Shown here: one piece after another, positions 13,433 through 60,406 of the stretch
How positions within the stretch are numbered: position 1 is the first letter of the stretch
Layout: each line of letters starts with the position of its first letter
Assembly: GCA_020059915.1 (NCBI GenBank)
Contig: JAGVBB010000003.1
Span: forward strand, 233,625-297,624
DNA length: 64,000 nt
Direction of reading: 5' to 3'
Source: Minisyncoccota bacterium
Lineage (GTDB): Bacteria; Patescibacteriota; Minisyncoccia; UBA6257; GWB1-50-10
Notes under the pieces: model-generated
Told to the model about the DNA's origin: nothing
Databases searched by the model: none
The model's input: only the letters and a program-made list of their open reading frames with translations
Made by a program: the position numbers and the translations under genes

Positions 13433-13435
13433 TTA

Positions 13436-13470
13436 ACCCCGCTAGTCTATGGATTAGCGGGGATTTTTAT
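13436..13470 (+). terminator. terminator hairpin CCCCGCTAGTCTATGGATTAGCGGGG plus T-run (bidirectional)
   Basis: Lies between convergent tdk and patatin genes. Confidence 0.7.
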
Positions 13471-31946: not shown

Positions 31947-32318
31947 TTAAAAAGGACACCCAGCTTTCTTGGCAAGTACATACAATTCTTGTTGACCCGC
32001 GAGTTGCGTTCCATCAGGAAATGTCCATGTTGGATATCCCTGTACGCCGGCATCAATACATTCCTTTTCTCTCTCGGTGCATTCAACATATGTAATATTT
32101 TCAAATGCACTCCCGAATTCTTTTTTCTGATTTTGGCAATGTGGACACCAATATGTTCCATACATCACCACTCCTTTTTCTTTCAAGCAAAGTGATAGCG
32201 CTGTAACTTCAGCAGTCGGTGGTTCTGGTTGGGCGGAATACCACAACAACACAAAAAGACCGACTACAAATACTGTAAGTCCAATCGTAATAAATATATT
32301 TTTTTTCTTCTGATTCAT
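31947..32318 (-). CDS. membrane-anchored thioredoxin-like protein (CPHC active site)
   Basis: N-terminal TM, then the thioredoxin-fold motif YGTYWCPHCQNQKKEF. Confidence 0.75.
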   Translation of the reverse strand: MNQKKKNIFITIGLTVFVVGLFVLLWYSAQPEPPTAEVTALSLCLKEKGVVMYGTYWCPHCQNQKKEFGSAFENITYVECTEREKECIDAGVQGYPTWTFPDGTQLAGQQELYVLAKKAGCPF

Positions 32319-32328
32319 AAATTCAATG

Positions 32329-32450
32329 TAAAATTCTAATTTCTAAGCCCTAAATTCTAAATAATATCAAAACTCAAATATTCAAATGACTTTTGATAAT
32401 TCTTATTTTGGATTTGTTTAGGGTTTCTATATTAGTGCTTAGGGTTTTTA
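32329..32450. repeat. diverged copy of the palindromic repeat family (lacks the GC-rich core hairpin)
   Basis: ccctaaattctaaataatatcaaaactcaaatatt ... ggatttgtttagggttt ... attagtgcttagggttt aligns with elements at 51921, 52674 and 54303. The tail supplies the stop codon of 32432..32968. Confidence 0.55.
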
Positions 32451-33927: not shown

Positions 33928-34290
33928 TTAAATATATGAAGGACTCAATTCATTAAGAGAAAGCCATCTCCTATATTTTTGAAGAGAAGAACAAAAAAGA
34001 TTTTTCTGAGAAATAAAAAAAGTGACGGAGCTTGAATGAAAAACAGCTGTTTGTTCAACAAATAGCACTGTAATAAAAAGAAGGAAGAACAAGGAAATCG
34101 CCAATGAAAGTTGGCTAAATGCGTTTATGTGAAAATTTAGAAACAAGATACTCCCCACATTTGCCGGGCACCCTCCCCCTTGGAGTGTCTGCACCAAACA
34201 TCCTGCATGAGACACAAATGCAATAAGCGTTATTGCGCTAATCCCGACAAGCGCAAATATGATAATAAATGATAAAAATTTTCGAAACAT
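33928..34290 (-). CDS. small membrane protein with a CxxxxxxxxxC loop (possible thiol-redox partner)
   Basis: 120 aa, 3-4 TM helices, loop cysteines HAGCLVQTLQGGGCPAN. Confidence 0.4.
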   Translation of the reverse strand: MFRKFLSFIIIFALVGISAITLIAFVSHAGCLVQTLQGGGCPANVGSILFLNFHINAFSQLSLAISLFFLLFITVLFVEQTAVFHSSSVTFFISQKNLFCSSLQKYRRWLSLNELSPSYI

Positions 34291-34300
34291 ATTTTAATAA

Positions 34301-34410
34301 ATTCTAATTTCTAAATCCCAAATTCTAAATAATATCAAAACTCAAATATTTAAATTAACTTCTTCAATTCGTGTTTTTTAGGATTTCGATATTAGTGCTT
34401 AGAGTTTATT
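34301..34410. repeat. diverged copy of the palindromic repeat family (lacks the GC-rich core hairpin)
   Basis: Very similar to the copy at 32329-32450. The tail gtttatttaa supplies the stop of the CsaA-like gene. Confidence 0.55.
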
Positions 34411-39047: not shown

Positions 39048-39050
39048 AGT

Positions 39051-42713: not shown

Positions 42714-42723
42714 AGTTTTTATA

Positions 42724-45700
42724 TTATCTTGTACATGTAATGTTGACCGCATAGTCAGTTGAGTTCTGATTATTACACTCGCTCAAATATCCAGAAGGAG
42801 GTGTTGGTGCAGCAGCACATTGTGTTGGCTGGGAACCAAAACTCCAATTTCCTGATTGTCCATCATACAATGTTACATTTGAAGAGGTACTCCAAGCACA
42901 ATCAATTGCTGTTCCAGAACCAATCGCATATCCATTTGGTTGTGAACCCCAAACACCATTTCCAATACTATGATATGCGGCATAAGAGACGCCGGAATTT
43001 GCTACTGTACATGAAGAATACCCAAGCTGTTGTCTGATCTGCGTCAATACATTGGAATCCCACTCACTATTCATCATACGAGCAATAAGTTTGTGTTGTG
43101 GATTTGACCAACTCGCAAGACGCGTGAATTGTGCATCCACACAAATTTCCTGGTCTCCATTATCAGTGACGCTACTACAATATATTCCATACTCACAAGG
43201 ATTTGATCCATATAAGAGTGGTGGAATTGAATTATATCCTTGCTTGAACAAAGTCAACGCAGGCGCTGCGGGTATTGCACCAAATTCTGCCGTCTGTGTA
43301 CTTTCTCCAAATCCGTTAATCGCAGAAATTTTATAATAGTATGTTGTACCATTGGTGACTCCTGTATCTAAATAATAATTTCCTGTTGATGTTGCATAAA
43401 GTGAAAAACCACTTCCCGACGTTAAGCTTCTAAAAATTTTGAAATAGCTTGGAATTGCTGTACAACTAATACCTCTACTCCATGAAAGAGCAACACTATT
43501 ATTTCCTGCGGTTGATGTTGCGGAAGATGGTACAGCTGGAGCCTGAGAAACTGCACTCGTACATTTTGTAACAACAACCTGTCCCGCACCCGATCTATTC
43601 CCCGCAATATTTGATTGATTTATTCCATCATTATATGATCCACCGCCACCTCCACCATATGTACTTCCCCAACTTCCACCTGCTCCACCACCAGAATATC
43701 CTCCTCCTCCACCGGCAGTAAGTCCACCTGCTCCACCACCGCCAAATCCACCAACATTGCCACCCCATCCGGACCATACGCTTGCTCCATTATCTCCACC
43801 ATATCCTCCATTTAAGAATTTTGAACCACCATAGTCATACCACGCAGAACTTCCACCTCCATCAACATTAGTAGTTCCATCTGTTCTCCATCCCGCTCCT
43901 CCTCCAGAATAATTTGCACGACCGCCACCCATTCCATTTGTTCCTCCAGCACCCCCACCAGATGATTGCCCAGCAGTTCCATTAATAGTTGTCTGTCCAC
44001 CACTTGCTGACCCACCCCCATTTGTACCAGGCGCGCCCCCACCACCACCGGCAACAATAATCGGCAAATTATTTGAATCAACTACAAAGGTTCCCCCTCC
44101 CCCTCCATTTCCTCCATTATATTGGACACCATTGTTTGCCGGGCTACCTTGTTGTCCAACAAGTATTGAAATTACCTCACCCATTCTTAAATACACATCG
44201 CCCTGCATTTTTGCTCCAAAACCACCCGTGTAACTCATTGAACCCCCCTGTGCTCCATACGCAGCTATTGTATAAACCCCAGTTTCAGGAACAGTCCATT
44301 TCTGTGTTCCTGTTGCAACATCAAAAAATGATGAGTTCTCATCCCAGGAAGTTGAGTATGCAGAACGACATGCAGATATCGTTGGACCAGTTCTTCCAGT
44401 TTGTGAACAATTAGTAAATGTATGTGTAGTAAATGAATATAAAACATTCGGTGTCGTGACACTAAATTCATTTGAGGTAGATCCTTCTCCGGCTATATTC
44501 GTACCGGAAACCTTATAATAGTAAGTGGTATTTTGTGTTGTTGTCGCGTCGGTAAAAGTAGTCGCTTCAACTCCTGAGGCAATAAGGGAATACCCACTCC
44601 CTGAGGTAAGGCTTCTATATATATTATAAGTATCTGTTGCAGTACATTCAGTTGCACTTGGTGCTGTCCACGAAAGAGCAACTGAAATACCAGAAAGGCT
44701 TCCCGTAAGTGAGGTTGGTGTTAGTGGTAAAGAAAAACTTGAGCAGGCAACATAACAGGCACGCTCTGTATTTCCATTCACATTTGCTGTTGTACCCGCA
44801 CTTGAAAGTCCTGCGGGACAAGAAATTGATTGGTTTGATCCCTTCTTTTGCACTGTAATTGTTTGGATTGGTCCGCCTTGCTTATAACAAACACGTTCTC
44901 CATAATCGCCAAGTGATCCAGAAACAGTGTTACATGATCCAGCCGTCCATCCAGTTGGACACGACTGACAAGTTGCGGCAGGAATTTTATAACACGCACT
45001 ACTGTACGCTGCTTGACCTGAACCGCGGTAGGTGTAATACGAAGAATTCCCCTGCCATTTTGTATATCCGGATGGACAAGCAACAGCATCGGATCCCGAT
45101 GTGGAAAAATATGGAAATGCATCTGCTGCTGTTGCTGAAGAGTTTACGCAGTATCCATTATATGATTGATATGAACTACTATAGGTATAATATTTTGCAT
45201 ATGTTGTGTCATACCAATTTGTGTATCCAGATGGACAGGTCACAGTAGTTGGTGCGTATCCAGTATAAATCTCCCATGGAAGAGAGGATGGTGATCCCTT
45301 GTAGCAAACTCCAGTGTAATAAGTGACCGACCCTGGACCATATGCATAATTTGTTGGGTACCATTTTGTATATCCAGATGGACAGGTCACTGATGCTGGC
45401 GAGGTAGATTTCCATTTGAATACATCCGTGCTTGCAGATGCGTTATAGCACGACCCCGTATAGTTATAATAACCACCCGTTGATGAATACCATTGTGCAT
45501 TTGCATGATACCAAGCGGTATATCCACTTGGACAAGAAATAAAGGTGGTTGGATCTCCACTTCCCGTGTATGTCTCCCACGTAAACGATGATGGTGACCC
45601 CTTGTAGCAAGCACCATTATACCCATTATAAGTAGAATATATTCCCTTTCCTGGATATGATGCATTTGTCCAAGTAGTGTATCCAGATGGACAGGTCACT

Positions 45701-46923
45701 GATGCCGGAGATGAGTATGCTTTCCAAGTGAAGACATCGTCTATTAAGGAGTTTTGATAACAAGTACCAAAATAAGAAGGGTTTCCACTTTCGTCTCCAT
45801 ACCAGTAGGCGTTACCGTGTGACCACAATGAGTACCCCGTAGGACAGGTAAAATAAGTTGAGATAGCACTTGTACGACTTTCAAAAGCAAATGTTTTGGG
45901 ATCTCCGATTGACGAATGTAAAGTTAAAATGGCACTTCCTGGTTTTGAACCACTGGTACCTGGAAGAACTTGCCACGTTCCGACGCCACTTGCATCCGTA
46001 GTAAGAGCATAACCCGCCGTTGTTGAAGTTCCAATTTGAATTCCTGTTGCGCGAACTTTTCCAACTACCTCAAGTTTTGTTGTTGGGTTAGTAATACCAA
46101 TTCCGACGTTCCCAGAGTTCCCAGAGTATAAAGATGTTGATGTTGCGGTCCACACAGAACCGACCAACGAATCAACATATCCTTTTGTCGCAGCGTTATT
46201 TGCAGCAGTTGGTGTTCCTACAGAAAGTGTAGAAAAACTTCCCGTGCCGGCCACATCAAGCAACGACGATGGCGTTGTTGTACCAATCCCAATATTTCCA
46301 GAGTTTGCCATCGTCATCCGATACTGTAGATTGTTCCTATTATAAAATTGGAGCCCACTTGCTGTCGTCCCAAAATTCCAAGAAGCATCAGACCCAATTA
46401 AGTTTAATGTTCCCGCCGTACTTCCACTTTGGAAATAGGTAACAATATTGCCAGATGGTGCAGAATTATATACATCAAATTTTATTGTTGGACTTATCCC
46501 TATACCAACCGCACCACCATTATTGATAATTAAAGAAGATGCAACCCATCCAGATCCATTATTATGCAATGTCTGGTTTGCACTTCCCGATCCAACACCT
46601 CCACCGAGAATGGAATCAACATATCCTTTTGTGGCAGCATTGCTCGCAGCAGTTGGAGATCCCGCACCAGTGCTTGTGGAAAAAACAGCACTCCCAACCA
46701 CGTGTAACGGATATGTTGGTACAAGGGTTCCAATCCCTATATATCCATTTCCACGAGAAATAAACAAATCACCGTTTCCGATGTTTATGTTATATCCACT
46801 CGTCTTATTGAATCCAAGTCCCGATGCATCACTTTGAATATCGGTGTCGCCAAAAAAAATACTTGCACTTACTACCAATGGAAGTAGACATAAACCTATG
46901 GTTAGTATGAGAAAGCGTTTCAT
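42724..46923 (-). CDS. giant secreted modular surface protein 3 (tail-fibre-like repeats, two-Cys tandem repeats, Fn3, ALK/LTK-type glycine-rich domain, second Fn3, Cys-rich C-terminal domain)
   Basis: Signal peptide MKRFLILTIGLCLLPLVVSAS. Same module order as protein 1, plus an extra C-terminal ~190-aa domain with 8 Cys. First gene of a four-gene minus-strand operon. Confidence 0.8.
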   Translation of the reverse strand: MKRFLILTIGLCLLPLVVSASIFFGDTDIQSDASGLGFNKTSGYNINIGNGDLFISRGNGYIGIGTLVPTYPLHVVGSAVFSTSTGAGSPTAASNAATKGYVDSILGGGVGSGSANQTLHNNGSGWVASSLIINNGGAVGIGISPTIKFDVYNSAPSGNIVTYFQSGSTAGTLNLIGSDASWNFGTTASGLQFYNRNNLQYRMTMANSGNIGIGTTTPSSLLDVAGTGSFSTLSVGTPTAANNAATKGYVDSLVGSVWTATSTSLYSGNSGNVGIGITNPTTKLEVVGKVRATGIQIGTSTTAGYALTTDASGVGTWQVLPGTSGSKPGSAILTLHSSIGDPKTFAFESRTSAISTYFTCPTGYSLWSHGNAYWYGDESGNPSYFGTCYQNSLIDDVFTWKAYSSPASVTCPSGYTTWTNASYPGKGIYSTYNGYNGACYKGSPSSFTWETYTGSGDPTTFISCPSGYTAWYHANAQWYSSTGGYYNYTGSCYNASASTDVFKWKSTSPASVTCPSGYTKWYPTNYAYGPGSVTYYTGVCYKGSPSSLPWEIYTGYAPTTVTCPSGYTNWYDTTYAKYYTYSSSYQSYNGYCVNSSATAADAFPYFSTSGSDAVACPSGYTKWQGNSSYYTYRGSGQAAYSSACYKIPAATCQSCPTGWTAGSCNTVSGSLGDYGERVCYKQGGPIQTITVQKKGSNQSISCPAGLSSAGTTANVNGNTERACYVACSSFSLPLTPTSLTGSLSGISVALSWTAPSATECTATDTYNIYRSLTSGSGYSLIASGVEATTFTDATTTQNTTYYYKVSGTNIAGEGSTSNEFSVTTPNVLYSFTTHTFTNCSQTGRTGPTISACRSAYSTSWDENSSFFDVATGTQKWTVPETGVYTIAAYGAQGGSMSYTGGFGAKMQGDVYLRMGEVISILVGQQGSPANNGVQYNGGNGGGGGTFVVDSNNLPIIVAGGGGGAPGTNGGGSASGGQTTINGTAGQSSGGGAGGTNGMGGGRANYSGGGAGWRTDGTTNVDGGGSSAWYDYGGSKFLNGGYGGDNGASVWSGWGGNVGGFGGGGAGGLTAGGGGGYSGGGAGGSWGSTYGGGGGGSYNDGINQSNIAGNRSGAGQVVVTKCTSAVSQAPAVPSSATSTAGNNSVALSWSRGISCTAIPSYFKIFRSLTSGSGFSLYATSTGNYYLDTGVTNGTTYYYKISAINGFGESTQTAEFGAIPAAPALTLFKQGYNSIPPLLYGSNPCEYGIYCSSVTDNGDQEICVDAQFTRLASWSNPQHKLIARMMNSEWDSNVLTQIRQQLGYSSCTVANSGVSYAAYHSIGNGVWGSQPNGYAIGSGTAIDCAWSTSSNVTLYDGQSGNWSFGSQPTQCAAAPTPPSGYLSECNNQNSTDYAVNITCTR
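44820..45900 (-). repeat. intragenic tandem array encoding two-Cys repeats
   Basis: Repeated tgtatatccagatggacaggtcac-type words. Confidence 0.7.
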
Positions 46924-50647: not shown

Positions 50648-51889
50648 TTATTTATTATTTTTGTAATATGTATCCAGATTCAAACCCTCCCAATCGCTAC
50701 TTGAATAATTAGTCCAATCTTTTGCATCAAATCGTGGAGCAGTTAGACGATAACTTATTTCTAATTTTGAATTTTGAATTTCTAATTTTGAATTAGGAAT
50801 ACCGAATATCACAATCTTTTTGTTTTGTTCGTCTTTTTGATACCATACTTTGCCATCAAAGTTTGGAGTAAGAAGCACAGACACATGCTTCAATCCATTT
50901 TTTTCTACATCAATAGTATGTGCAAATAACCACACATCACTTCCTTTTTCTTTATTGTTTAAATCAATAGTATATGAATATAAATTCCCATTCAAAGTTG
51001 CAACAAGTGTAGCAACGTCACTGAGCTCTTCTTTCACACCACCAACCATTCCAGGGTTGTATGTTGCATATCGCTTCCCTTCTATGGTGTAAACTGGATC
51101 AAATGTCACCCCATCAATCTTGTTTGCAATAATATCTGCCGCCGCTGTTCCCTCATCTGCATAGATTTGTCCAGCAACTTGAAGTTTATATGTTGGATTC
51201 GTTATACCAATACCTACCCTTCCAGAACTATCTACATTTAAACGCCATGCACCAGTATGCCAAAAGCCAAATGCAGAGGTCCCAGTGTTATCTAAGGATC
51301 CTATAAACCTGTCTCCACTCCCGGAAGAGTCTGTAATCCAAATTCCAGCACTTCCATTAGAACCCTGTCTTATTCTAATTCTATCTGCAATATCTAATTT
51401 ATATCCAGGAGTTACTCCAATACCAACACTTCCATCTCCCGCAAAAACAACTGGATATGATGTATTCCCAAACATTCTAACTCCATTCCCTCCAGCAAAT
51501 TGCATTTCAATAAAACCATCGGTTCTGTTTATTTGGCTGGCATTCATGGTAAAGGCGCCACCGGCACCAACCTGAAGAACACCCGCAATAGTCGTGGTTC
51601 CTACAACATATAATGGTGAAGTTGGATTTGTTGTTCCAATACCAACATAGGTTGCCGCTTGTGGATAAATCTTTGTACTTGTTGCAGTCCATCCCCCACC
51701 CCCAATCGCTGATGCGCTATCAAGCGTTGAGCTGTCTGGAAATCGAATAACTTTTCCTGGCGAAAGAATAATATCTTTATCAATAGTAAGTGAGTTCTGT
51801 GCATATACAACGGCAACACCACTCAAGATCACGACACCCAAAAATAAGAGCGCTCCCGAAAACAATTTTTTGCGCAAAAAATGTTTCAT
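50648..51889 (-). CDS. secreted tail-fibre-like repeat protein with a C-terminal domain shared with 55488..59504
   Basis: Likely start MKHFLRKKLF (signal peptide); the ORF track start 51913 uses GTG. Contains VGIGTTNPTSPLYVVG, VGIGVTPGYKLDI and VGIGITNPTYKLQVAG repeats. C-terminal DPVYTIEGKRYATYNPGMVGGVKEE...EKGSDVWLF matches the C-terminus of the 1338-aa protein. Confidence 0.7.
   Translation of the reverse strand: MKHFLRKKLFSGALLFLGVVILSGVAVVYAQNSLTIDKDIILSPGKVIRFPDSSTLDSASAIGGGGWTATSTKIYPQAATYVGIGTTNPTSPLYVVGTTTIAGVLQVGAGGAFTMNASQINRTDGFIEMQFAGGNGVRMFGNTSYPVVFAGDGSVGIGVTPGYKLDIADRIRIRQGSNGSAGIWITDSSGSGDRFIGSLDNTGTSAFGFWHTGAWRLNVDSSGRVGIGITNPTYKLQVAGQIYADEGTAAADIIANKIDGVTFDPVYTIEGKRYATYNPGMVGGVKEELSDVATLVATLNGNLYSYTIDLNNKEKGSDVWLFAHTIDVEKNGLKHVSVLLTPNFDGKVWYQKDEQNKKIVIFGIPNSKLEIQNSKLEISYRLTAPRFDAKDWTNYSSSDWEGLNLDTYYKNNK
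50758..50799. repeat. 21-nt tandem duplication inside the CDS (encodes NSKLEIQ NSKLEIS) with similarity to repeat-element flanks
   Basis: tttctaattttgaatt ttgaa tttctaattttgaatt. Confidence 0.5.
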
Positions 51890-51920
51890 ATCTATAGAAT
51901 TAGTATAACACACTGCAATA

Positions 51921-52080
51921 AACTCTAATATCTAAAAACTAAATCCTAAACAAACCTGTCTGCCGATAGGTAGATTCAAATGACCAAAACTCAAAATATT
52001 TAGAACATTTGGATTTTGATATTGTTTAGAGCTTAGCCTGCCTGTCCGGTAGGCAGGAATTAGTGCTTAGAGTTTAATAA
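51921..52080. repeat. palindromic IVS-like repeat element, copy 1 (upstream of 50648..51889)
   Basis: aaactctaatatctaaa...caaaactcaaaatatttagaacatttggattttgatattgtttagagcttag CCTGCCTGTCCGGTAGGCAGG aattagtgcttagagtttaataaaa; the core hairpin is at 52037-52057. Confidence 0.8.
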
Positions 52081-52100: not shown

Positions 52101-52658
52101 TTATTCTACTATCATCTTCCCCACCTCTCCCCTTCCTGGATGTCCAGGAACATCACAATGATATGCATACGTTCCTTTTTTCGTCGGTGCGTTGAACGTA
52201 ATGAGTCTCGCAGGATCACCAGGACCAACACCAACCGCTACTGCAGAAAGTGATGGATCATCAAACATAAATAAGTGAGTTCCACTATCTCCCGCAGAAA
52301 CAAGTAAGTGCGTCACTGCTCCCGCCTTTACTGTAAATTGTGAGGGGGTGATTCCTGTTGCTGAAATTTTTATATCTATCGCTTCTGAAGGAACAGATGC
52401 CTTGTCTGTTATAGGAAGTGATTCTTGTGGTGCCTCTGGTGACATTGGCGCAACATCGTTTCGTGCTGCCTTTCCTTCTGGTGTTACCACAACACCCTCA
52501 ACACTCACCGCACTCGCACCAGGTGCTGCAACATTACTCGGTTTGTATGTCTGCTCTTGTTGCGTTGGCTCGCTGAAACTTCCCGTGATCGCAAGCGCTA
52601 CCACAATGGCAATAACAACAACCGCAAATATAATCCAAATAATTGTTTTCTTTTCCAT
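52101..52658 (-). CDS. membrane-anchored cupredoxin-like (type-1 copper) protein
   Basis: N-terminal TM, Pro/Ser/Glu-rich linker, then a C-terminal beta-sandwich with His (GTHLFMF), YHCDVPGH and GKM, i.e. an H-C-H-M ligand set. Confidence 0.7.
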   Translation of the reverse strand: MEKKTIIWIIFAVVVIAIVVALAITGSFSEPTQQEQTYKPSNVAAPGASAVSVEGVVVTPEGKAARNDVAPMSPEAPQESLPITDKASVPSEAIDIKISATGITPSQFTVKAGAVTHLLVSAGDSGTHLFMFDDPSLSAVAVGVGPGDPARLITFNAPTKKGTYAYHCDVPGHPGRGEVGKMIVE

Positions 52659-52673
52659 AAGTTAATTATAACA

Positions 52674-52818
52674 AAAACTCTAATATCTAAACCCTAAATT
52701 CTAAACAAATTTAAATGACCAAAACTCAAAATATTTAGAACATTTGGATTTTGATATTGTTTAGAGCTTAGACCTGCCTGTCCGGTAGGTAGGAATTCGT
52801 GCTTAGAGTTTAATAAAA
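52674..52818. repeat. palindromic IVS-like repeat element, copy 2 (upstream of 52101..52658)
   Basis: Nearly identical to copy 1. The core at 52773-52793 has one substitution that keeps pairing only as G-U on the plus-strand transcript. Confidence 0.8.
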
Positions 52819-52839: not shown

Positions 52840-54273
52840 TTATCGTTTCATTTTAAAGTCCAATCTCATTGATTTAAGGAACAATGAATACATCGGATTG
52901 GAATCTGGAGTATATTCCATCTTCCAGAATATTCGATTTGCTTCTTGATTCTTGAATGTTATTTCTTCCCCCACATTCACGCGTTGCCAATTGGTGCCAT
53001 CATTAGAAAGGAAAATAGATATATTTCCCGATTTTGTATAATCCGCAAATGTAACTGTTCCTTTTTGAACGGGAAGAATATTGTTGCTGATGTTTGCAGA
53101 GGCAACGGTGTACGATTTTGAATTATCAAATCCATAGTCATAAAAATTCCACGCCTCAACCCCAGTGTCGGCATCTGCATTGCAACGAAGCGCTCTATTT
53201 TCCACAACCCCGTCGCAAACCAATCTGCGAACGTTGCCCAACGAATTCAACGAGCTCATCAAGTTGACTGCCCCCTCAATTGAATTTGTCCCATTCTGAA
53301 ACAATTTTATGAACTTTATTTTCCCCGCTCCCTTGTTCCACACATACCACATTGCATCGTTCCCAAATCCAACTTTTGATATACCGGGGACAAACCCGCC
53401 ATCCATGAACCGCGTATTGAATATATTGGGAATTTCTACGGCACTCCCATCATTCAAAAACTGAAAAGCACGACCCTCATATCCCCCATACACCAACAAC
53501 CACCCACCATCATTTCCCCCAATACCAATCGTCCCAATATATTTTGAATCAAATAATTCTCCACTTCCTTTTATGTTTTTAAAATTGGAACCATCAAATG
53601 CATATACATAGGACTTAAAGATTCCATCTTCCTTGATAACCACCCCAACACGCCACCCTGAATCCAATGCAGAAACGGAAACGGTCATCAATGTTTTTGA
53701 TCTCACCTCTTCAGGGAGTTGTACCTCACTTGATCCTCGATATAGTCCCAACCCTTTTGCTACATAGCATTCTTTTTGTATGCACGCCTCTTCCGCAGAT
53801 ATTTGTTTGAATGCATCTGCTCGTCGCCACTCGTATTTTGGAGGGAGTGTGAACACACTCACTTCTCGATCGTGCCACAAGGTTGTCTGCACCTGATCTA
53901 CCCAGCCAAGCCCAGAAAAGAAGTCATGGAATGTTTGGTAGCTATATTCATCAGAAACTGCTTGCGGACCAAGTCCTGGAATATCAAGTTGGATCAGTGA
54001 TTTGGAAAGTTCTTTCTGTCTCATTTTCGACAATGTCTCTGTGGAGGACGCAATAATTGTCTTTTGTCCCGCAGTTGTCTGATCACCTTTCTGCACACTT
54101 ATAATTGCATTATCAACAATCTTTCTTTCAAGGAAGTTACGAACCGCTGTTGCTGCCAAAAAAAGAAATGTAAAAAAACCGATTGCAGCAATCATCACGC
54201 TGAAAGCGATTCCCAATCCTTCAAATACCTTCTTCCCCTCTTTTGTTATTTTCTTGAACGGCTCATGCTTCAT
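52840..54273 (-). CDS. membrane-anchored extracellular protein, unknown function
   Basis: 477 aa with an N-terminal TM; no family I recognise. Confidence 0.55.
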   Translation of the reverse strand: MKHEPFKKITKEGKKVFEGLGIAFSVMIAAIGFFTFLFLAATAVRNFLERKIVDNAIISVQKGDQTTAGQKTIIASSTETLSKMRQKELSKSLIQLDIPGLGPQAVSDEYSYQTFHDFFSGLGWVDQVQTTLWHDREVSVFTLPPKYEWRRADAFKQISAEEACIQKECYVAKGLGLYRGSSEVQLPEEVRSKTLMTVSVSALDSGWRVGVVIKEDGIFKSYVYAFDGSNFKNIKGSGELFDSKYIGTIGIGGNDGGWLLVYGGYEGRAFQFLNDGSAVEIPNIFNTRFMDGGFVPGISKVGFGNDAMWYVWNKGAGKIKFIKLFQNGTNSIEGAVNLMSSLNSLGNVRRLVCDGVVENRALRCNADADTGVEAWNFYDYGFDNSKSYTVASANISNNILPVQKGTVTFADYTKSGNISIFLSNDGTNWQRVNVGEEITFKNQEANRIFWKMEYTPDSNPMYSLFLKSMRLDFKMKR

Positions 54274-54302
54274 TTCTTTAATTGTAACAAAAACAATTAA
54301 AG

Positions 54303-54448
54303 AAACTCTAATATCTAAACTTTAAATTCTAAACAAATTCAAATAACCAAAACTCAAAATATTTGAAACATTTGGATTTTGATATTGTTTAGGATTTAGA
54401 CCTGCCTGTCCGGTAGGCAGGAATTAGTGCTTAGAGTTTAATAAAAAA
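54303..54448. repeat. palindromic IVS-like repeat element, copy 3 (upstream of 52840..54273)
   Basis: Same architecture as copies 1 and 2; core hairpin at 54401-54421. Confidence 0.8.
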
Positions 54449-54469
54449 TCCGCCTTTCGGCGGTATTTT
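54449..54469 (-). terminator. terminator CCGCC-GAAA-GGCGG plus U-run for the 54470 gene
   Basis: Hairpin abuts the stop codon. Confidence 0.7.
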
Positions 54470-54976: not shown

Positions 54977-54991
54977 AATATCATTATACAC

Positions 54992-55480
54992 AAACTCTAA
55001 ATTCGAAAACCTAAACCCTAAACAAATTCTAATATCAAAAAAGATAAAACTATTTTGACTTCTCAATAATAGAACCGAATATCTTCATTAACTCTGTCGC
55101 CTCTTGTTTTAGTTCTTTTTGTTTCTCTTCGTCGTTTTGATTCACAAGAATAAGTGATAACCAATAAACACTTTCTTTTGCTTCTTTTCTACAAATTTTA
55201 ACTCTCATAACAAAATCTTTTTTACTTAGAGATTCGTTGGCTTCAATATAGTTAGCACCAACAGAACCCGCCGAACGAGCAAGCTGTTTTCCATATTCAA
55301 TAGTGGTGACCGATTTTGGAGCTTTATTTATTAAATCACGCACGTTTCGTGCAAAGATAAGCGTTCTCTCTTCAAGATCATATCCACCTTTTCTATTTTG
55401 AAATTCAACCATTTGAATTTTGAGATTGTTTAGAGTTTAGGCCTGCCTGTCCGGTAGGCAGGAATTAGTGCTTAGGGTTT
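54992..55480. mobile_element. copy 4 of the palindromic element, split into left (54992-55043) and right (55413-55480) halves by the embedded four-helix-bundle ORF
   Basis: The left half aaactctaaattcgaaaacctaaaccctaaacaaattctaatatcaaaa and right half ttgaattttgagattgtttagagtttagg CCTGCCTGTCCGGTAGGCAGG aattagtgcttagggttt together reconstitute copies 1-3, with the 363-nt ORF in place of the central loop. Confidence 0.7.
55050..55412 (-). CDS. four-helix-bundle protein (23S rRNA intervening-sequence protein family; same fold family as DGR Avd)
   Basis: 120 aa containing GSVGANYIEANESLSKKDFVMRVKICRKEAKESVYWLSL, characteristic of TIGR02436/PF05635. Confidence 0.75.
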   Translation of the reverse strand: MVEFQNRKGGYDLEERTLIFARNVRDLINKAPKSVTTIEYGKQLARSAGSVGANYIEANESLSKKDFVMRVKICRKEAKESVYWLSLILVNQNDEEKQKELKQEATELMKIFGSIIEKSK

Positions 55481-55487
55481 ACAGTTT

Positions 55488-58400
55488 TTATTTCTCCTTG
55501 AGAATAAACGATGGAGTTTCCTTTTGATCTTTGCTATATGTTGGCCACTCCTTCCAGTCATGGCGGTTACCAATAAGGCGATACGAAAATTCTGTCGGTT
55601 CATCTGCAAAGAATTTAATTGTTTTTCCGCTAATTATGTATCCCACACCAACCGTCGTCCCATACGGAGTTGTAATCGCTTGTACATTATCTTTTCCAAA
55701 ATCAACCGCCTGATACCAAAGCCACAAGTCGGAACCTCGTTCAATATTTGAGAAATCAATGACATATTGATACTCAGTTCCTCCAAATCCTAATTTCGAA
55801 CCTTGCCTACCGCCTGCCTGTCCGGTAGGCAGGGCAGACAGGTTTTGAATTTCTAAACAATTTTCTAAATCAGAATTCTCTAAACTATTTTGAGTTTTGA
55901 TATTTGAATTTTGGCATTGTTTAGAGTTTAGGGTTTCAGATTTAGAGTTTTGAAGAGTGAGTTGGCCTCGTCCAACGAACTCTTCTTTCACTCCTCCCGC
56001 AATTGAGGATGTATATGTTGCATATTTCTTTCCATCAATTTCATACAACGGGTCGATGGTCTGCACGGTAATTTTTCCAATAGAACCAATGTTTCCTCCA
56101 CTCAAAGTTATACTACTTGACGCATTCATCGTAAGATTTCCATTGATCGTCACCTGATTGTTAAACCATGATGTTCCTGATACATACAATCGATGAGTTC
56201 CTGGGTTTGTTGTGCCGACTGCAAGCTGTCCATTCATATAATTGATTCCCGTTCCATCAGATTGCACAGCACCAGCAAATTTTAATGATGTTCCCGTATT
56301 TGCAGGATCAATATAATAGGTGGGGTCGTTGTAGTCATAGTACTTGGTTGCACTGAGTGTATCAGTGAGTTGTCCCTGTCCAATAACATCAAGTTTGAGT
56401 GACGGACCTGCTCCACCAATGATTACTTTTCCTGTAGTGGCTGCAAGGGTTGAAGTACCCGATACATACATGGTGGCAAAGGATGCGGTTGAGGTTCCAC
56501 TTCCACCACTACCGAGAACAGAATCTACATATCCTTTTGTAGCAGCATGACCAGAATCACCTGGTGAACCAACAAAGATTGGATTTTCAAATTTAGCCGT
56601 TCCATTCACGTGAAGTAGATATGCGGGAGTGGTGGTACCGATACCGACATAACCACTTTCTCTAATGGACATTCTTTCTACTAAAGCTCCATCAACTATA
56701 GGATTTCTAACAAAAAACCCTAATCTTTGTTTATTGGTTATAGCATTGTTGTCTTCAATATTTATCCTTTTTATACCAACTGCATCAAAAAGATTAGTTG
56801 TAGCATTATAATAACCCCTAAATATAAGACCGCCATTTTCTCCACCAGTTGCATTTCGTTCTGAAAGATATATCTTTGCGGCATCGGCAGTTGCAGACGA
56901 AATTTCAAGTAACGATCCTGGATTTGTTGTTCCAATACCAACATTGCCATCCCCACTTATACTCATCGCATTCACCCAACTAAATGTCGATCCAGCAGTA
57001 CCGGTTGGTGCAACTTTGAAATCCATTGATCCAGCCGCATCTGAGTTCCAACCAATTCTCCCCGCACCACTAGCCAGAATGCGCTGCCACGCACCACCAC
57101 TATTAAAGAACGCATTGTTAACAATATAAGAATCTGCGGCAGAATCTCTTTGCATAATGTTAACAGGACCAAACATATTAAATTGATATCCTGCGTTTAC
57201 CGTTGAATAACCAGTTGAACCAACATGAAAACGTCCTTGTGGAGAAGCGTTCCCAATACCAGCGCGACCACTTGGAGTAACAGTAAATACCTCTCCACCG
57301 CCCGTTGAAGAATATGCGCGGATTAACAATGCTCCCGCATCACTTGAATAATTTTCTATATTTACAAGTTTTTGAGTTCCCACAGCTGTATTTTTTACTC
57401 TTAATAATTCATTTGTTGATGTGTCATATACTTCAAGTTTTGCGGCGGGGCTGGTTGCCCCAATACCAACCCTTCCATTGCCACCAGATGCGGAGAGAAA
57501 TGCAAAATTATTATTTGAATAAAAATTAGTAATAGCACTTGTTTGATCAATAGCAAATTGTCCAGTTCCATCTCCTATTGTAAAATCATTACCAGCATAG
57601 TTTGCTAGTGCTCCTATTTGTAATTTATTTGCGGGTGCCGTTGTCCCAATACCTACCCTCTCATTCGTCGCGTCAACTTTCAACACATTATTCGTACTTG
57701 CCGCTGCTTCAAATGTATAATTTCCTTTTCCTGCAGTGTATCCAAAGGTTCCTGCAGAGACATTACTTGCCCCCACATTTGTTGTCATTGTTCCCCCCGT
57801 TGTTATATTTCCCGAAACATACGCATTCCCCTGCACATGTAACGCCTGTGTCGGCGTTGATGTTCCAATCGCAACCCAATCGGTTGTGGTGGTGAGTGTC
57901 ACATAGGTCCCCGTTCGCGACCACCCCACAGAATTTCCCCCACCCCCCGCAGTTAACTGGATTGATCCATCAGGAAACTTGAACCCTCCTGTTGTTGACT
58001 CAACCACCCCCGCAACAGAAAGTTTTTGCGCTGGATTTGTAATACCTATCCCAACACTTCCATTAAAATATGATTTTGCAGAGCCAGTTGAATATACCGA
58101 ATAAAAATTATTTCCTCCATTATTTACATTAAGTTCAATACCAGAATTTGCTCCCGTTCCCGTTGATGTATTGGAAACCTTAATGCCAGATGTCTGCCAT
58201 GTTGGAGCACCACTTATATTGATATCAATTCCATAATTAATAACATCAGTTTGTGCATTTGTGGTAATTGCCAATTTTTGATTTGGATTTGTTATTCCAA
58301 TACCAACATTGCCCGTTGGGCTTATTGTCATTCTTTCTACTGGAATATCGTTTCCACTACCCGTTATACCAGTTCCTGATTTTGTAGCAAAAACAAGATA

Positions 58401-59504
58401 ATCCCGTTCGCTTCCAGCAGTATCATTTAATCTTGTACCAATCCATGCTTGTGGTGATCCATTGAATGTCGTTCCACCTTGATAATTTAATAAATGGTTG
58501 AATGCAATGCCTGAATAATAAGATCCGACTGTTGTGGACCTATCATGTAACGGGCCTAATTGTATGTTATATACATTTGAATTTATTGATATGTTTCCAG
58601 TACTCGGTCCCTCAATATGTGCACTTCCATTATATAAATGTAACTTTGCGCTTGGACTAGTTGTCCCAATGCCAACCTTTCCACCAGCCGGGTTTAATAA
58701 AAGTCCGTATTGAGTAGCGGATTGTAAGGTTGTATAACCAGTAGAACCATTATAAAGTTCAAGTGTTGCGTTGTAAGAATTTCCATTTGTCCCCCAACCA
58801 TTCCCTTGTCCAATTTTTCCACCATTCGATAACGCGATATCTCCAAAAACCTCCAATTTTTTACTTGGACTCATCACCCCAATTCCAACATTTCCCGCAA
58901 CATACAATCCGTTTGTTGGTAGCCTCGCAATTGAGGAGGTTCCCACACCAAGTGCGCTTGGAAATGCATAGTTCGTTGATTGGAACGCTCCCCCTGTGAT
59001 ACTCGACGGAGAGAGTTGCCCAACAAACGCCGCCTCGGTTTGTATACTTCCCCCAACATGCAAAGTTGAACTTGCTATCCCCACAGGACCAATACCAATG
59101 TTTCCATTTGGTTCAACAAAAAAACGTAATGCACCAGCAGAAAGTGCTGTTTCATCCCATAACGCCAACCGTCCATTTGGACGAGAATACCACACATATG
59201 TGTGTCCCCCCGTGGTAAGGTTCTTAAGTGCAATACCAGGATCAGATGTTGAAGCAACAGTAAATATTTTTCCAAAGCGCGCATTTGTCGGATCTCCCGT
59301 TGGTGTTGCCAAACTAGTTCCAAAACCAATGTTTCCACTCGCATCAAGCTGTAACACACCACCCCCCTGTCCCGCAGGAAGTGCCGGACCAGTGAACGCA
59401 AAAACAAAACCACCAGCAAACAAACTTGAAGCAAGTGTAAAAACTGTTATTCCAATAATTATGCGTGAGTACTTCAAAATAGTAGTGTAAAGTTCAAACT
59501 TCAA
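55488..59504 (-). CDS. giant secreted tail-fibre-like repeat protein (1338 aa) with an in-frame repeat-element insertion in its C-terminal domain
   Basis: Signal peptide and at least 20 repeats of the G.VGIGTT.P..KL.V type (NVGIGVMSPSKKLEVFG, KVGIGTTSPSAKLHLYNG, RVGIGATSPAAKLEVYD ...). The C-terminal domain is homologous to that of 50648..51889 but interrupted by 55 aa encoded by the repeat element. Confidence 0.75.
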   Translation of the reverse strand: MKFELYTTILKYSRIIIGITVFTLASSLFAGGFVFAFTGPALPAGQGGGVLQLDASGNIGFGTSLATPTGDPTNARFGKIFTVASTSDPGIALKNLTTGGHTYVWYSRPNGRLALWDETALSAGALRFFVEPNGNIGIGPVGIASSTLHVGGSIQTEAAFVGQLSPSSITGGAFQSTNYAFPSALGVGTSSIARLPTNGLYVAGNVGIGVMSPSKKLEVFGDIALSNGGKIGQGNGWGTNGNSYNATLELYNGSTGYTTLQSATQYGLLLNPAGGKVGIGTTSPSAKLHLYNGSAHIEGPSTGNISINSNVYNIQLGPLHDRSTTVGSYYSGIAFNHLLNYQGGTTFNGSPQAWIGTRLNDTAGSERDYLVFATKSGTGITGSGNDIPVERMTISPTGNVGIGITNPNQKLAITTNAQTDVINYGIDINISGAPTWQTSGIKVSNTSTGTGANSGIELNVNNGGNNFYSVYSTGSAKSYFNGSVGIGITNPAQKLSVAGVVESTTGGFKFPDGSIQLTAGGGGNSVGWSRTGTYVTLTTTTDWVAIGTSTPTQALHVQGNAYVSGNITTGGTMTTNVGASNVSAGTFGYTAGKGNYTFEAAASTNNVLKVDATNERVGIGTTAPANKLQIGALANYAGNDFTIGDGTGQFAIDQTSAITNFYSNNNFAFLSASGGNGRVGIGATSPAAKLEVYDTSTNELLRVKNTAVGTQKLVNIENYSSDAGALLIRAYSSTGGGEVFTVTPSGRAGIGNASPQGRFHVGSTGYSTVNAGYQFNMFGPVNIMQRDSAADSYIVNNAFFNSGGAWQRILASGAGRIGWNSDAAGSMDFKVAPTGTAGSTFSWVNAMSISGDGNVGIGTTNPGSLLEISSATADAAKIYLSERNATGGENGGLIFRGYYNATTNLFDAVGIKRINIEDNNAITNKQRLGFFVRNPIVDGALVERMSIRESGYVGIGTTTPAYLLHVNGTAKFENPIFVGSPGDSGHAATKGYVDSVLGSGGSGTSTASFATMYVSGTSTLAATTGKVIIGGAGPSLKLDVIGQGQLTDTLSATKYYDYNDPTYYIDPANTGTSLKFAGAVQSDGTGINYMNGQLAVGTTNPGTHRLYVSGTSWFNNQVTINGNLTMNASSSITLSGGNIGSIGKITVQTIDPLYEIDGKKYATYTSSIAGGVKEEFVGRGQLTLQNSKSETLNSKQCQNSNIKTQNSLENSDLENCLEIQNLSALPTGQAGGRQGSKLGFGGTEYQYVIDFSNIERGSDLWLWYQAVDFGKDNVQAITTPYGTTVGVGYIISGKTIKFFADEPTEFSYRLIGNRHDWKEWPTYSKDQKETPSFILKEK
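55788..55952. repeat. palindromic IVS-like repeat element, copy 5, inserted in-frame within the 55488..59504 CDS
   Basis: Core CCTGCCTGTCCGGTAGGCAGG at 55812-55832 plus the long palindrome. The 165-nt insertion encodes QNSKSETLNSKQCQNSNIKTQNSLENSDLENCLEIQNLSALPTGQAGGRQGSKLGF between conserved domain residues. Confidence 0.75.
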
Positions 59505-59606: not shown

Positions 59607-59640
59607 ATACCAAAAAACCGCCCACAGGCGGTTTTCAATT
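59607..59640 (-). terminator. terminator CCGCC-CACA-GGCGG plus U-run
   Basis: 3' of the 59706..60299 gene. Confidence 0.6.
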
Positions 59641-59705
59641 TTAATTTATAAATTTCAAATCTCTATTACTCCGACATCTAGCCCCTAACCCCCAATCACT
59701 ATCCC

Positions 59706-60299: not shown

Positions 60300-60406
60300 G
60301 GCTCTTATATATAGTATAACACGTTAGAATTACAAAATTTCGAATTTCAAGTTTCAAATTAAGGACCCAATTCTCCCATTTGAAATTTGTAAATTATAAA
60401 TTGAAA

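Follow-up and report, generated by a model that had tools for sequence, protein, structure and literature searches.

A PF05635 gene between heptamer-repeat arms, with ORF-less hairpin relatives, as a candidate IVS-like unit outside rRNA

Closest described systems and the encoded protein

The closest described system is the intervening sequence (IVS) of 23S rRNA; where it and its conserved ORF come from and what they do has been a puzzle for over 30 years (PMC4990558). In Coxiella burnetii, a 28-bp terminal inverted-repeat stem carries the S23p ORF in its loop and is excised by RNase III, with heptameric repeats placed just before the ATG (PMC4990558). The locus studied here lies in a 64,000-nt stretch of a Parcubacteria (CPR) genome (the window), and its gene (55050..55412, minus strand, 120 aa, ATG start) shares with the IVSs of Coxiella burnetii (helix 45) and Leptospira both the PF05635 family and the placement of the ORF in the loop of a terminal-inverted-repeat stem. 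Like the Coxiella IVS, it has heptameric tandem repeats directly upstream of the ATG and no good Shine-Dalgarno sequence, and like 23S IVSs it is co-oriented with the host transcript, AT-rich relative to its host and patchy in phyletic distribution (PMC4990558). The description as IVS-like given in the initial annotation fits this architecture, with the long stem around the ORF and the heptamers before the ATG. In contrast to 23S IVSs, which occupy rRNA helix 9, 25 or 45, elements of the present kind are located in mRNA operon spacers, tRNA-gene spacers and one coding sequence; furthermore, ORF-less derivatives are dispersed within the same genome, the Coxiella ORF is decaying, in contrast to the protein here, on which purifying selection is strong, and RNase III cleavage is a prediction for the present element. 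The location outside rRNA was borne out: a gathering-threshold Rfam scan of the window returned no matches, and neither the window nor any of 172 related loci showed 16S/23S similarity in blastn with E. coli rrs/rrl. A tRNA scan of the window was negative as well. In the literature searched, which included few subscription journals, no paper describes PF05635 genes enclosed by hairpins outside rRNA, though an earlier report may exist.

The ORF encodes a member of the PF05635/TIGR02436 four-helix-bundle (4HB, IVS-protein) family, in agreement with the initial annotation, whose quoted peptide lies within its translation. The protein matches the profiles PF05635 (E 3.2e-14; 53.5 bits, cut-off 33.8) and TIGR02436 (E 2e-20; 73 bits, cut-off 24), its AlphaFold monomer model (pLDDT 92.2) displays helices at residues 13-30, 35-59, 64-87 and 92-119, and the best Foldseek matches of this model are 2RLD (E 1.9e-5, TM 0.73-0.80), also matched by phmmer (E 3.7e-12), and 2GSC, followed by the Avd structures 4DWL and 8UB7. 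Residues 1-10, which are encoded by stem-like sequence, are predicted to be disordered and outside the fold (pLDDT 39). The conserved family motif was published as GxxRxxxSxxxNxxE (PMC3936711); its RxxxSxxxNxxE part is present as RSAGSVGANYIE, with S50, N54 and E57 invariant in our alignment A1, and its leading G is out of register.

PF05635 is also the Pfam family that matches Avd (PMC10053308), and the claim of a fold shared with this accessory protein of diversity-generating retroelements (DGRs) holds, with a TM of 0.65-0.72 to 4DWL and 8UB7. Unlike Avd, however, to which identity is ~14 %, the 4HB gene stands alone inside its own inverted repeats; moreover, no reverse transcriptase (RVT) appeared in the Pfam lists within 10 kb of the loci L001 and L002 or within 3 kb of L005-L014. 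Profile searches of the ORF of the PF05635/TIGR02436 type yielded no match to a transposase family. PF05635 is large, as 11,084 clusters at 50 % identity match it at E <= 0.001, and we know of no function for it outside DGRs.

Comparable palindromes without such a gene are the Correia elements of Neisseria and the enterobacterial ERIC, which are MITE-like and fold in transcripts, as well as the Rickettsia palindromic elements (RPEs), which insert in frame. The ORF-less copies of our window resemble Correia and ERIC in being imperfect palindromes of 120-160 nt that are multi-copy, intergenic and situated by gene starts, and one of them sits in frame within a protein-coding gene, a trait shared with RPEs. 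In contrast to all of these, a full-length partner exists which encodes a 4HB protein instead of a transposase, the arms are heptamer arrays, and the design recurs across phyla instead of in one lineage. By-eye inspection of four copies (c1-c4) revealed no consistent duplicated flank, and no clean empty site was found to compare. The designation "MITE-generating" in the initial annotation therefore holds loosely: the derivatives are short, multi-copy and bounded by terminal inverted repeats, whereas the partner sharing their ends encodes no recognisable transposase, only the 4HB protein, and target-site duplications were not apparent by eye.

Hairpin copies in the window and in a sister genome

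The window contains seven short copies with terminal inverted repeats, of which c4 harbours the 4HB gene. On the minus strand, its 5' arm (55413..55480) consists of heptamer units (..CCTAAGCAC..CCTAAACTCTAAACAA) that end 14 nt before the ATG and includes a nested GC mini-hairpin (55441-55462), and its 3' arm (54992..55049) contains ..TTTGTTTAGGGTTTAGGTTTTCGAATTTAGAGTTT, so that the element begins at 54992 and ends at 55480, as had been proposed. The nested GC hairpin, GCCTGCCTGTCCGGTAGGCAGG, occurs five times versus zero expected. MAFFT aligned both flanks of c4 (54992-55049 and 55413-55480) collinearly with the ORF-less copies c1 (51920..52075), c2 (52675..52811) and c3 (54303..54439), the ORF taking the position of the loop. 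Replacement of the loop by a 4HB ORF, as initially annotated, is thus correct, but its borders are not exact: likeness to the ORF-less copies reaches ~9 nt into the ORF (55404-55412) and begins again, in alignment A3, some 10 nt upstream of the stop codon, and the ORF is flanked without extra sequence on the right side, whereas on the left 6 nt (55044-55049) lie between the stop codon and the left half. Because the similarity extends into the ORF, the ATG is part of the shared backbone.

The ORF-less palindromes c1-c3 measure ~140 nt each. In its left arm, c1 has an additional GC-hairpin-like insert that is degenerate (~51954-51973). Copy c3 is bordered by a terminator-like hairpin (54450-54463) on one side and by the start of the gene 52840..54273 on the other, and its folding energies are -39.8 kcal/mol (z -5.5) for the minus and -45.6 kcal/mol (z -8.2) for the plus strand. 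Terminator-like hairpins precede all three copies, and given these, co-transcription with the respective upstream gene may be absent. Two further ORF-less copies, c5 (32327..32447, upstream of the gene 31947..32318) and c6 (34295..34410, upstream of the gene 33928..34290), are divergent and devoid of the GC hairpin. The remaining copy, c7 (55806..55955, minus strand), has the opposite orientation and is read through in frame within the large surface-protein ORF 55488..59504 (..QNSKSETLNSKQCQNSNIKTQNSLENSDLENCLEIQNLSALPTGQAGGRQGSKLGF..). A sigma-70 consensus scan identified no full promoter beside the elements. Reading the sequence by eye, we noticed boxes (TATAAT or TACAAT) that precede downstream ATGs by 6-7 nt, one of them a TATAAT box downstream of the c4 3' arm, 6 nt before the ATG (54976) of a cupredoxin gene. 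One metagenome contig stops inside c7, which might evoke chance juxtaposition or an assembly artefact around the repeats; the probability of this is nevertheless negligible, since the identical 4HB gene and flanks are present on independent JGI, NCBI, ENA and Logan assemblies and the hairpin-enclosed architecture recurs in ~130 independent loci.

In LiPW_41 (GCA_007375535.1), the closest relative of the window's genome, a 4HB gene with its arms fills the site that corresponds to the ORF-less c3, and the site equivalent to c4 is occupied by other DNA. The arms of the two units are 93 % and 87 % identical, and the gene shows a dS of 0.38 (dN/dS 0.066) versus 0.82-3.15 for five flanking host genes. 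Judged by these substitution rates, the 4HB copies are younger than the surrounding host genes, and the unit occupies different hairpin sites in the sister genomes. In contrast, c2 is orthologous and ORF-less in both, with a divergence close to that of host DNA; its LiPW_41 counterpart lacks the GC mini-hairpin. The link between ORF-bearing and ORF-less forms drawn by the initial annotation gains support from the unit at the c3 site, and from the ORF-less copies themselves, which retain the ATG and first codons. As for its direction, the 9-nt direct repeat TCAAAATAG, found at both ORF ends (55393-55401, codons 4-7, and 55050-55058, stop codon), offers a simple deletion route, and ORF deletion is favoured over ORF insertion, consistent with the proposed derivation of the short elements from an ORF-bearing one.

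Arms and genes across phyla

For the first subfamily, 78 unique species-level loci from many phyla were surveyed. Inverted-repeat flanks proved common around the homologous genes, as the flank score exceeded all 50 shuffles at 65 of the 78 loci (no significant inverted repeat was present at the other 13), with a median of 35 versus 15 at 336 control positions. The arms comprise tandem heptamers over ~35-70 nt and stop ~6 nt before the ATG, a spacing that is fixed in 36 of 53 loci. Stem pairing accounts for 79.7 % of the cells in the arm alignment but for at most 52 % when the register is slid, the covariation score is 0.182 versus 0.128 in shuffles (reached by none of 500), and the variable base of the heptamer alternates between UA and GC with a period of 7, covarying between the arms. 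Neighbouring genes are co-oriented upstream in 62 of 65 and downstream in 63 of 67 cases, across gaps whose medians are 54 and 94 nt. Extra arm copies, defined by blast of each locus's own arms, exist in 35 of 74 loci (115 matches versus 9 with shuffled queries); a loose regular-expression scan for heptamers was too unspecific. For instance, Deltaproteobacteria and Syntrophobacteraceae possess ORF-less copies that keep the ATG and first codons, as here. A second subfamily (27 % identity) repeats this pattern, with inverted repeats flanking 51 of 62 loci and neighbours co-oriented in 46/53 and 50/51; three of its members are situated between tRNA genes, and none near rRNA. The scanned IMG/VR viral contigs contained no relatives or copies, and a second-round HMM search of the locus ORFs retrieved no further divergent members.

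These data can be read without mobility, if the arms were a cis-regulatory RNA structure, serving start-codon sequestration or stability control, of a vertically inherited and host-beneficial 4HB gene, and the ORF-less hairpins were remnants of decayed copies. The ATG indeed lies paired in the stem of the arm alignment, the low dN/dS denotes strong purifying selection, c2 diverges at the pace of host DNA, and ORF GC correlates with host GC (r = 0.74), pointing to long residence, not rapid hopping. We nonetheless consider this explanation rather unlikely, as the sister genomes differ in the site of the unit and host genes exceed its dS two- to eight-fold, proteins that are 59-70 % identical occur in unrelated phyla and unrelated gene contexts, and ORF-less copies are found upstream of unrelated genes, one in frame and some nested.

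A different origin would apply if the hairpins were single-stranded DNA palindromes of the REP/BIME or IS200/IS605 type that a Y1 (RAYT-like) transposase mobilises in trans, with the 4HB gene as a passenger that landed in their loops. Like REP/BIME, the repeats are palindromic, intergenic and multi-copy, and the small nested GC hairpin resembles REP; nested copies or insertions into loops occur, and a PF01797 Y1_Tnp gene is encoded ~8 kb from the LiPW_41 unit. Furthermore, mismatches in 69 stems (233 G:U versus 226 A:C) revealed no bias to the sense RNA, so that selection could equally act on DNA. However, the arms are far longer than those of REP/BIME and are AT-rich heptamer arrays tied to the ORF; their orientation follows host transcription, a constraint not expected of a DNA-only element. 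Moreover, no RAYT/Y1 gene turned up in a scan of 10 window ORFs, the type of the arms follows the 4HB phylogeny, and the 6-nt spacing between arm and ATG speaks for ORF and arms forming a single unit, all of which makes this origin quite unlikely in our opinion.

The arm types themselves raise the question of what the heptamers are for. Both arms agree in type (26 T/T, 19 G/G and 3 mixed), their heptamers change together (CTAAA, CGAAA, CCAAA, ACAAA), and in 46 of 56 cases the type equals that of the nearest neighbour by protein, compared with a permutation mean of 28; these figures come from a second tally, which superseded a noisy, crude count of the dominant pentamer per arm. Host GC does not account for CTAAA versus CGAAA arms. 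Such joint switching along protein clades would be in line with iteron-like sites bound by a 4HB pentamer, for autoregulation or in a DNA nucleoprotein complex, with arm pairing as a by-product of symmetric arrays, and Avd-type pentamers do bind nucleic acids (PMC10053308), 8UB7 being among the structural matches. This proposal is very unlikely in our estimate, though, because deeply divergent subfamilies with unrelated repeat units retain arm complementarity, base-pair covariation is specific to the proposed register, and ORF-less copies persist where no protein gene is at hand.

A model for the unit and its possible reach

Instead, we favour, as fairly probable, that the locus represents a widespread IVS-like unit which rides host transcripts, is apparently mobile and leaves MITE-like ORF-less derivatives. 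The unit would consist of the PF05635 gene between two inverted heptamer arms, placed in a tight spacer of co-directional host genes or, among relatives, between tRNA genes. As it is co-oriented and without room for its own terminator and promoter, it would be transcribed within the host transcript, where the arms, the ATG and the first ~8 codons are predicted to form a long interrupted duplex with the sequence downstream of the stop codon, leaving the ORF as the loop. By analogy with the homologous 23S rRNA IVS, RNase III would cut this duplex, thereby releasing the 4HB mRNA and separating the host RNAs again, so that insertion into operons and stable-RNA genes might be tolerated. The unit behaves as a mobile or selfish element, its ORF and arms being inherited together; internal deletion, probably via short direct repeats at the ORF ends, would generate ORF-less MITE-like hairpins, which are retained in 5' intergenic spacers and, in one instance, in frame within a gene, and which could regain an ORF by homologous recombination through their arms. 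Likely, the Avd-like protein, putatively a homopentameric toroid as in its family, acts on the nucleic-acid stem of its own element.

The presence of this unit outside rRNA in many phyla ties the puzzle of the 23S rRNA IVS to a dispersed, apparently mobile element, and if the gene is nearly always found in a covarying heptad stem, co-oriented in operons and accompanied by ORF-less derivatives, IVSs would be one niche of a broader element. If correct, our model would explain many hitherto puzzling AT-rich palindromes in CPR genomes, odd low-complexity inserts in predicted proteins and possibly the short tandemly repeated repetitive (STRR) hairpins of cyanobacteria, with consequences for how these genomes are annotated and assembled. 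STRRs, which to our knowledge were never linked to a gene, are said to have been encountered by Vioque in 1997 inside the RNase P RNA gene. They consist of 7-bp units in tandem which can fold into hairpins between the genes of an operon (for example hupS-hupL), and their function is still unknown (PMC2670836). Similar arrays flank cyanobacterial 4HB genes, namely CCCCAAT/AATCGTA heptamer arms on a Planktothrix plasmid and AAATTCA arms in Nostoc, and these few loci suggest that STRR hairpins are linked to 4HB units. Extending this further, we tentatively propose, and regard as possible though doubtful, that the stand-alone non-DGR members of PF05635 form one superfamily of transcript-riding selfish elements, with 23S IVSs, both ORF-bearing and short ORF-less ones, as its rRNA residents and cyanobacterial STRRs as its ORF-less derivatives. 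Each gene would then be locked in a heptad-repeat stem and enter transcribed DNA at spacers or helix tips, and the Avd-like pentamer, perhaps aided by a cellular nuclease or a reverse transcriptase, would serve on this stem as the maintenance or mobility factor. Should the model hold, the function of the protein could be tested against its own stem in tractable organisms, as Nostoc, Anabaena and Planktothrix plasmids carry examples of the 4HB gene. A point against the model is that in two cyanobacterial plasmids the 4HB gene lies antisense between cas2 and cas1.

The 4HB gene and its repeat element

Like all genes between ~30 and 60 kb of the window, the four-helix-bundle (4HB) gene lies on the minus strand (55050..55412); it starts with ATG, encodes 120 aa and contains the peptide quoted in the initial annotation, where the ORF was taken for a four-helix bundle akin to the proteins of 23S rRNA intervening sequences (IVS) and to Avd, the accessory protein of diversity-generating retroelements (DGR). 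Profile searches bear this out, with matches to PF05635 above the gathering score (E 3.2e-14) and to TIGR02436 'four helix bundle protein' (E 2e-20). A further match is PDB 2RLD (E 3.7e-12), whose annotation is S23 ribosomal protein family, and an AlphaFold model with 20 homologues as input (pLDDT 92) places helices at residues 13-30, 35-59, 64-87 and 92-119, residues 1-10 being disordered; Foldseek ranks 2RLD and 2GSC first, then Avd (4DWL, 8UB7; TM 0.65-0.72). Because these results agree, the assignment is sound. The family is large, comprising 11,084 representatives at 50% identity.

The flanks of the ORF are part of a repeat family (D9, D11-D13, I1-I4) with seven copies counted in the window: the ORF-less c1 (51920-52075), c2 (52675-52811) and c3 (54303-54439), the ORF-bearing c4 (54992-55480), the divergent c5 (32327-32447) and c6 (34295-34410), and c7 (55806-55955, minus strand), in frame inside ORF 55488..59504. 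Every ORF-less copy is an imperfect palindrome of ~120-155 nt, whose arms consist of AT-rich heptamer units, ..AAACTCTAATATCTAAACCCTAAATTCTAAACAA.. pairing with ..TTGTTTAGAGCTTAG..GTGCTTAGAGTTT, and c3 folds far better than its shuffles (z -5.5 for the minus strand, -8.2 for the plus strand). Both halves of c4 proved collinear with c1-c3, as had been proposed; however, the halves do not flank the ORF exactly, as the ORF-less copies follow c4 as far as '..CAAATG' and align again from ~10 nt ahead of the stop codon, and the start codon therefore belongs to the shared backbone. Judging from these alignments, it is the ORF body (~350 nt) that stands in place of the hairpin apex. Furthermore, the 9-nt sequence TCAAAATAG occurs in c4 as a direct repeat, once in codons 4-7 (55393-55401) and once at the stop codon (55050-55058); slippage or recombination between the two would leave very nearly the ORF-less form. 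The plus strand of c1-c3 reads ATGACCAAAACTCAAAAT (MTKTQN), near the family consensus N-terminus MTKIQNSK, which alone leaves the ancestral orientation unfixed because the hairpin is symmetric.

The protein nearest to that of the window (95% identity) belongs to the sister genome 'Parcubacteria group bacterium LiPW_41', and an identical gene occurs on a JGI groundwater metagenome contig. Gene order in LiPW_41 is syntenic with the window, and its 4HB unit, between a 168-aa cupredoxin gene and a 480-aa gene, occupies the site of the ORF-less c3, while the c4 site harbors a GIY-YIG gene and a different palindrome. The two 4HB genes share 92% nucleotide identity (dS 0.38, dN/dS 0.066) and their arms 93% and 87%; five flanking host genes have dS values of 0.82-3.15, and c2 has an ORF-less orthologue about as divergent as host DNA. 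The protein is thus under strong purifying selection. It follows from the LiPW_41 sites, the dS values and the c2 orthologue that the ORF-less copies are old and vertically inherited, and that the ORF-bearing unit is younger than the host split and has changed its site. A nested 22-nt GC hairpin (GCCTGCCTGTCCGGTAGGCAGG) in one arm of c1-c4 and c7 (52036-52057, 52772-52793, 54400-54421, 55441-55462, 55812-55833; 5 occurrences versus 0 expected), accompanied in the other arm of c1 by a second, degenerate one (about 51954-51973), is a separate, independent small insert, since the LiPW_41 orthologue of c2 (L002 11895-12030) lacks it.

Stem-enclosed relatives across bacteria

Scanning a single genome for each species yielded 566 stretches encoding relatives, the best 80 of which are 59-70% identical to the window protein and derive from CPR lineages, Saccharibacteria, Deltaproteobacteria/Desulfobacterota, Planctomycetota (including Brocadia and Scalindua), Chloroflexota, Ignavibacteria, Chlorobi, Bacteroidota, Omnitrophota, WOR-3, Calditrichota, Gammaproteobacteria and others. 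A flank plan recurs: upstream, ~4 heptamers, AAACAA, ~6 nt and the ATG; downstream, the stop codon, ~25-35 nt, TTGTTT and complementary heptamers. In 36 of 53 loci, exactly 6 nt separate the AAACAA anchor from the start codon. The initial annotation had called for a search of other genomes for inverted-repeat flanks, and these are indeed common: the upstream/downstream inverted-repeat score exceeded all 50 shuffles in 65 of 78 unique loci, with a median of 35 versus 15 at 336 random control positions (95th percentile 20). Four further divergent paralogues in this set possess inverted-repeat arms of unrelated sequence.

When 40 loci were aligned without gaps on the anchors, 79.7% of cells paired in the proposed arm register versus at most 52% with the register slid, the former figure being somewhat inflated because the downstream anchor was picked to maximise pairing and loci with fewer than 24 of 38 pairs were dropped. 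Position-specific covariation is unaffected by anchor choice, and the arm covariation score lay above all 500 shuffles. The variable heptamer base switches from UA to GC at pairs 6/69, 13/62, 20/55 and 27/48, spaced by 7 (at 20/55: UA 18, GC 14, unpaired 5), and the long stem, conserved and covarying, includes the ATG and first codons. Counted without alignment, 26 loci have CTAAA/TTTAG arms, 19 have CGAAA/TTTCG and 3 are mixed. Arm type had no relation to host GC. In 46 of 56 cases it agreed with the arm type of the nearest neighbour by protein (28 on average in permutations, with 0/2000 reaching 46); ORF and arms are therefore inherited jointly and travel as a unit.

An asymmetric internal loop in the arms (AGCAC opposite GATAT) is conserved as well; it faces one way relative to the ORF in 15 loci and the other way in 17 (for instance, L016, L019, L037, L038 and L070 versus L026, L031, L036 and L050), independently of protein phylogeny (14/32 concordant). 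Such a mixture would be expected if ORF or hairpin flips via recombination between the inverted arms.

Searches with each locus's own arms found them again within 10 kb at 35 of 74 loci (115 hits versus 9 for shuffled queries). Read by eye, those of the deltaproteobacterial locus L038 and the Syntrophobacteraceae locus L082 are ORF-less hairpins, some nested in each other's loops, that retain '..AAACAAnnTCAAATG ACC AAA..', the 4HB start. ORF-less copies with both ORF ends retained support the earlier reading of the short elements as ORF-less derivatives of an IVS-like cargo element. In L082 (880-1200, 1480-1830, 10370-10640), such hairpins stand in tandem and nested in one another's loops, which hints at hairpin apices as preferred insertion targets.

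A second, highly divergent subfamily was sampled through a paralogue at locus L063, 27% identical to the window protein (PF05635 E 3.5e-19), with which 78 metagenome loci (62 unique) were fetched. Inverted-repeat flanks occur in 51 of the 62, built from different, purine-rich units (AAAAGGN, AAATCAN) ending in ..CAAAATG. As this subfamily and the four divergent paralogues share stem enclosure with other arm sequences, such enclosure characterises the PF05635 family, not a single clade. The phenomenon extends well beyond the window, the architecture being common to most sampled members of two distant subfamilies; the original observation is confirmed and its interpretation supported.

Operon setting, known systems and a putative mechanism

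In the first set, the nearest neighbours are co-oriented with the 4HB gene upstream in 62/65, downstream in 63/67 and on both sides in 52/58 loci, versus about 50% expected from random spacer insertion, and median gaps (54 nt upstream, 94 nt downstream) leave little beyond the arms themselves. Co-oriented neighbours and tight gaps place the unit inside operons, where its transcription almost certainly relies on read-through. The second subfamily has co-oriented neighbours in 46/53 (upstream) and 50/51 loci (downstream), with gaps of 50 and 70 nt. No rRNA was found near the loci of either set. Three second-subfamily units lie between co-oriented tRNA genes (L167 1382-1988, L171 1368-1957, L139 1-606; Lys-Leu twice, Met-Asp once), and thus in stable-RNA operons with processed transcripts, by the logic of an rRNA IVS. 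Contexts are otherwise unrelated, such as leuS, invasin-like genes, cupredoxins, and cas or DISARM/BREX operons on plasmids; occurrence in cas/defence context has also been reported (PMC3936711). Compared with its host, the element is rich in AT (median GC: ORF 35.5%, arms 28.5%, host 45.2%), and ORF GC correlates with host GC (r = 0.74).

Plasmids of cultured cyanobacteria and a Chloroflexota bacterium carry 4HB genes within defence operons (L174, Anabaena cylindrica pANACY.01; L178, Nostoc sp. TCL26-01; L175, L177, L179), at cas2-cas1 (antisense in two cases), csx2-cas1, drmD-pglX and helicase gene-methylase gene positions, mostly with arms of the kind seen in the cyanobacterial short tandemly repeated repetitive (STRR) heptamers.

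The window element works like a large IVS but does not reside in rRNA, the feature that defines one. Its ORF-less copies resemble MITEs and transcribed palindromes (Correia, ERIC), although their full-length partner encodes no transposase. Rickettsia palindromic elements are inserted in frame in genes, and c7 resembles such insertions. The arms in cultured cyanobacteria are tandem heptamers of the STRR kind: CCCCAAT/AATCGTA flanks a Planktothrix plasmid 4HB gene, Nostoc flagelliforme has AAATTCA, and AAAAGTA occurs in Nostoc and Anabaena. Hairpins of STRR repeats have been described between operon genes, with no function assigned to them (PMC2670836); the putative connection is a lead. Published accounts place PF05635 in rRNA IVS, DGR Avd or cas loci; consistent with the novelty suggested initially, a literature search of incomplete coverage found no description of these genes as hairpin-enclosed, dispersed elements outside rRNA.

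The Coxiella IVS has a 28-bp terminal stem with mapped RNase III cuts, an S23p ORF in the loop and heptameric repeats before the ATG (PMC4990558). By analogy, the arm duplex may be an RNase III substrate, whose cleavage would cut out the 4HB mRNA and re-establish the host RNAs, rendering insertion nearly harmless. The wobble test of the stems (G:U 233, A:C 226) is as compatible with a palindrome acting at the DNA level as with a sense-RNA stem. The ORF might be lost via deletion between direct repeats and regained by ORF-less hairpins via recombination through the arms; such a route would account for the c3/c4 swap without a transposase. No transposase turned up in the 10 window ORFs scanned, no viral carrier among IMG/VR contigs and, by eye, no consistent target-site duplication at c1-c4. 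An Avd-like pentamer could bind the stem.

Further repeats in the window

Copy c7 is translated in frame in the C-terminal domain of a 1338-aa surface protein (ORF 55488..59504, minus strand). The LiPW_41 orthologue has a shorter, different repeat-derived insert (ISNDEFRMTNDSEFKIQNSKFNN) at this position, and the paralogue 50648..51913 none; within the latter, a short repeat-like coding stretch (50756-50794, minus; AATTCAAAATTAGAAATTCAAAATTCAAAATTAGAAAT, translated NSKLEIQNSKLEI), where paralogue sequence is unrelated, may be a remnant of a heptamer arm. Directly after c4, c2 and c3, TATAAT/TACAAT boxes lie 6-7 nt 5' of the ATG of the downstream genes (54983-54988, 52658-52675, 54273-54300; minus), which suggests leaderless mRNAs with promoters adjoining the hairpin; a consensus promoter scan did not call these boxes. 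Other AT-rich heptamer palindromes, of a different type (ACAAA, TCAAA or CGAAT units), lie in the window (60320-60406, 59632-59660) and in LiPW_41 (L002 9215-9400, 2430-2520); they precede cupredoxin genes, and one in LiPW_41 adjoins a GIY-YIG gene. Several hairpin families exist side by side in both genomes.

Three very large tandem paralogous ORFs (35679-46923, minus; 1122, 1233 and 1399 aa) carry a ~50-aa module with a C-P-T-G-Y motif in many copies (families D2, D4-D6), and share families D1, D3, D7 and D8 with the surface proteins at 50648-51913 and 55488-59504. At 454-486 and 13435-13467, 13 kb apart and inverted to each other, are two copies of a GC hairpin that resembles a terminator (AAAACCCCGCTAGTCCATAGACTAGCGGG-like).
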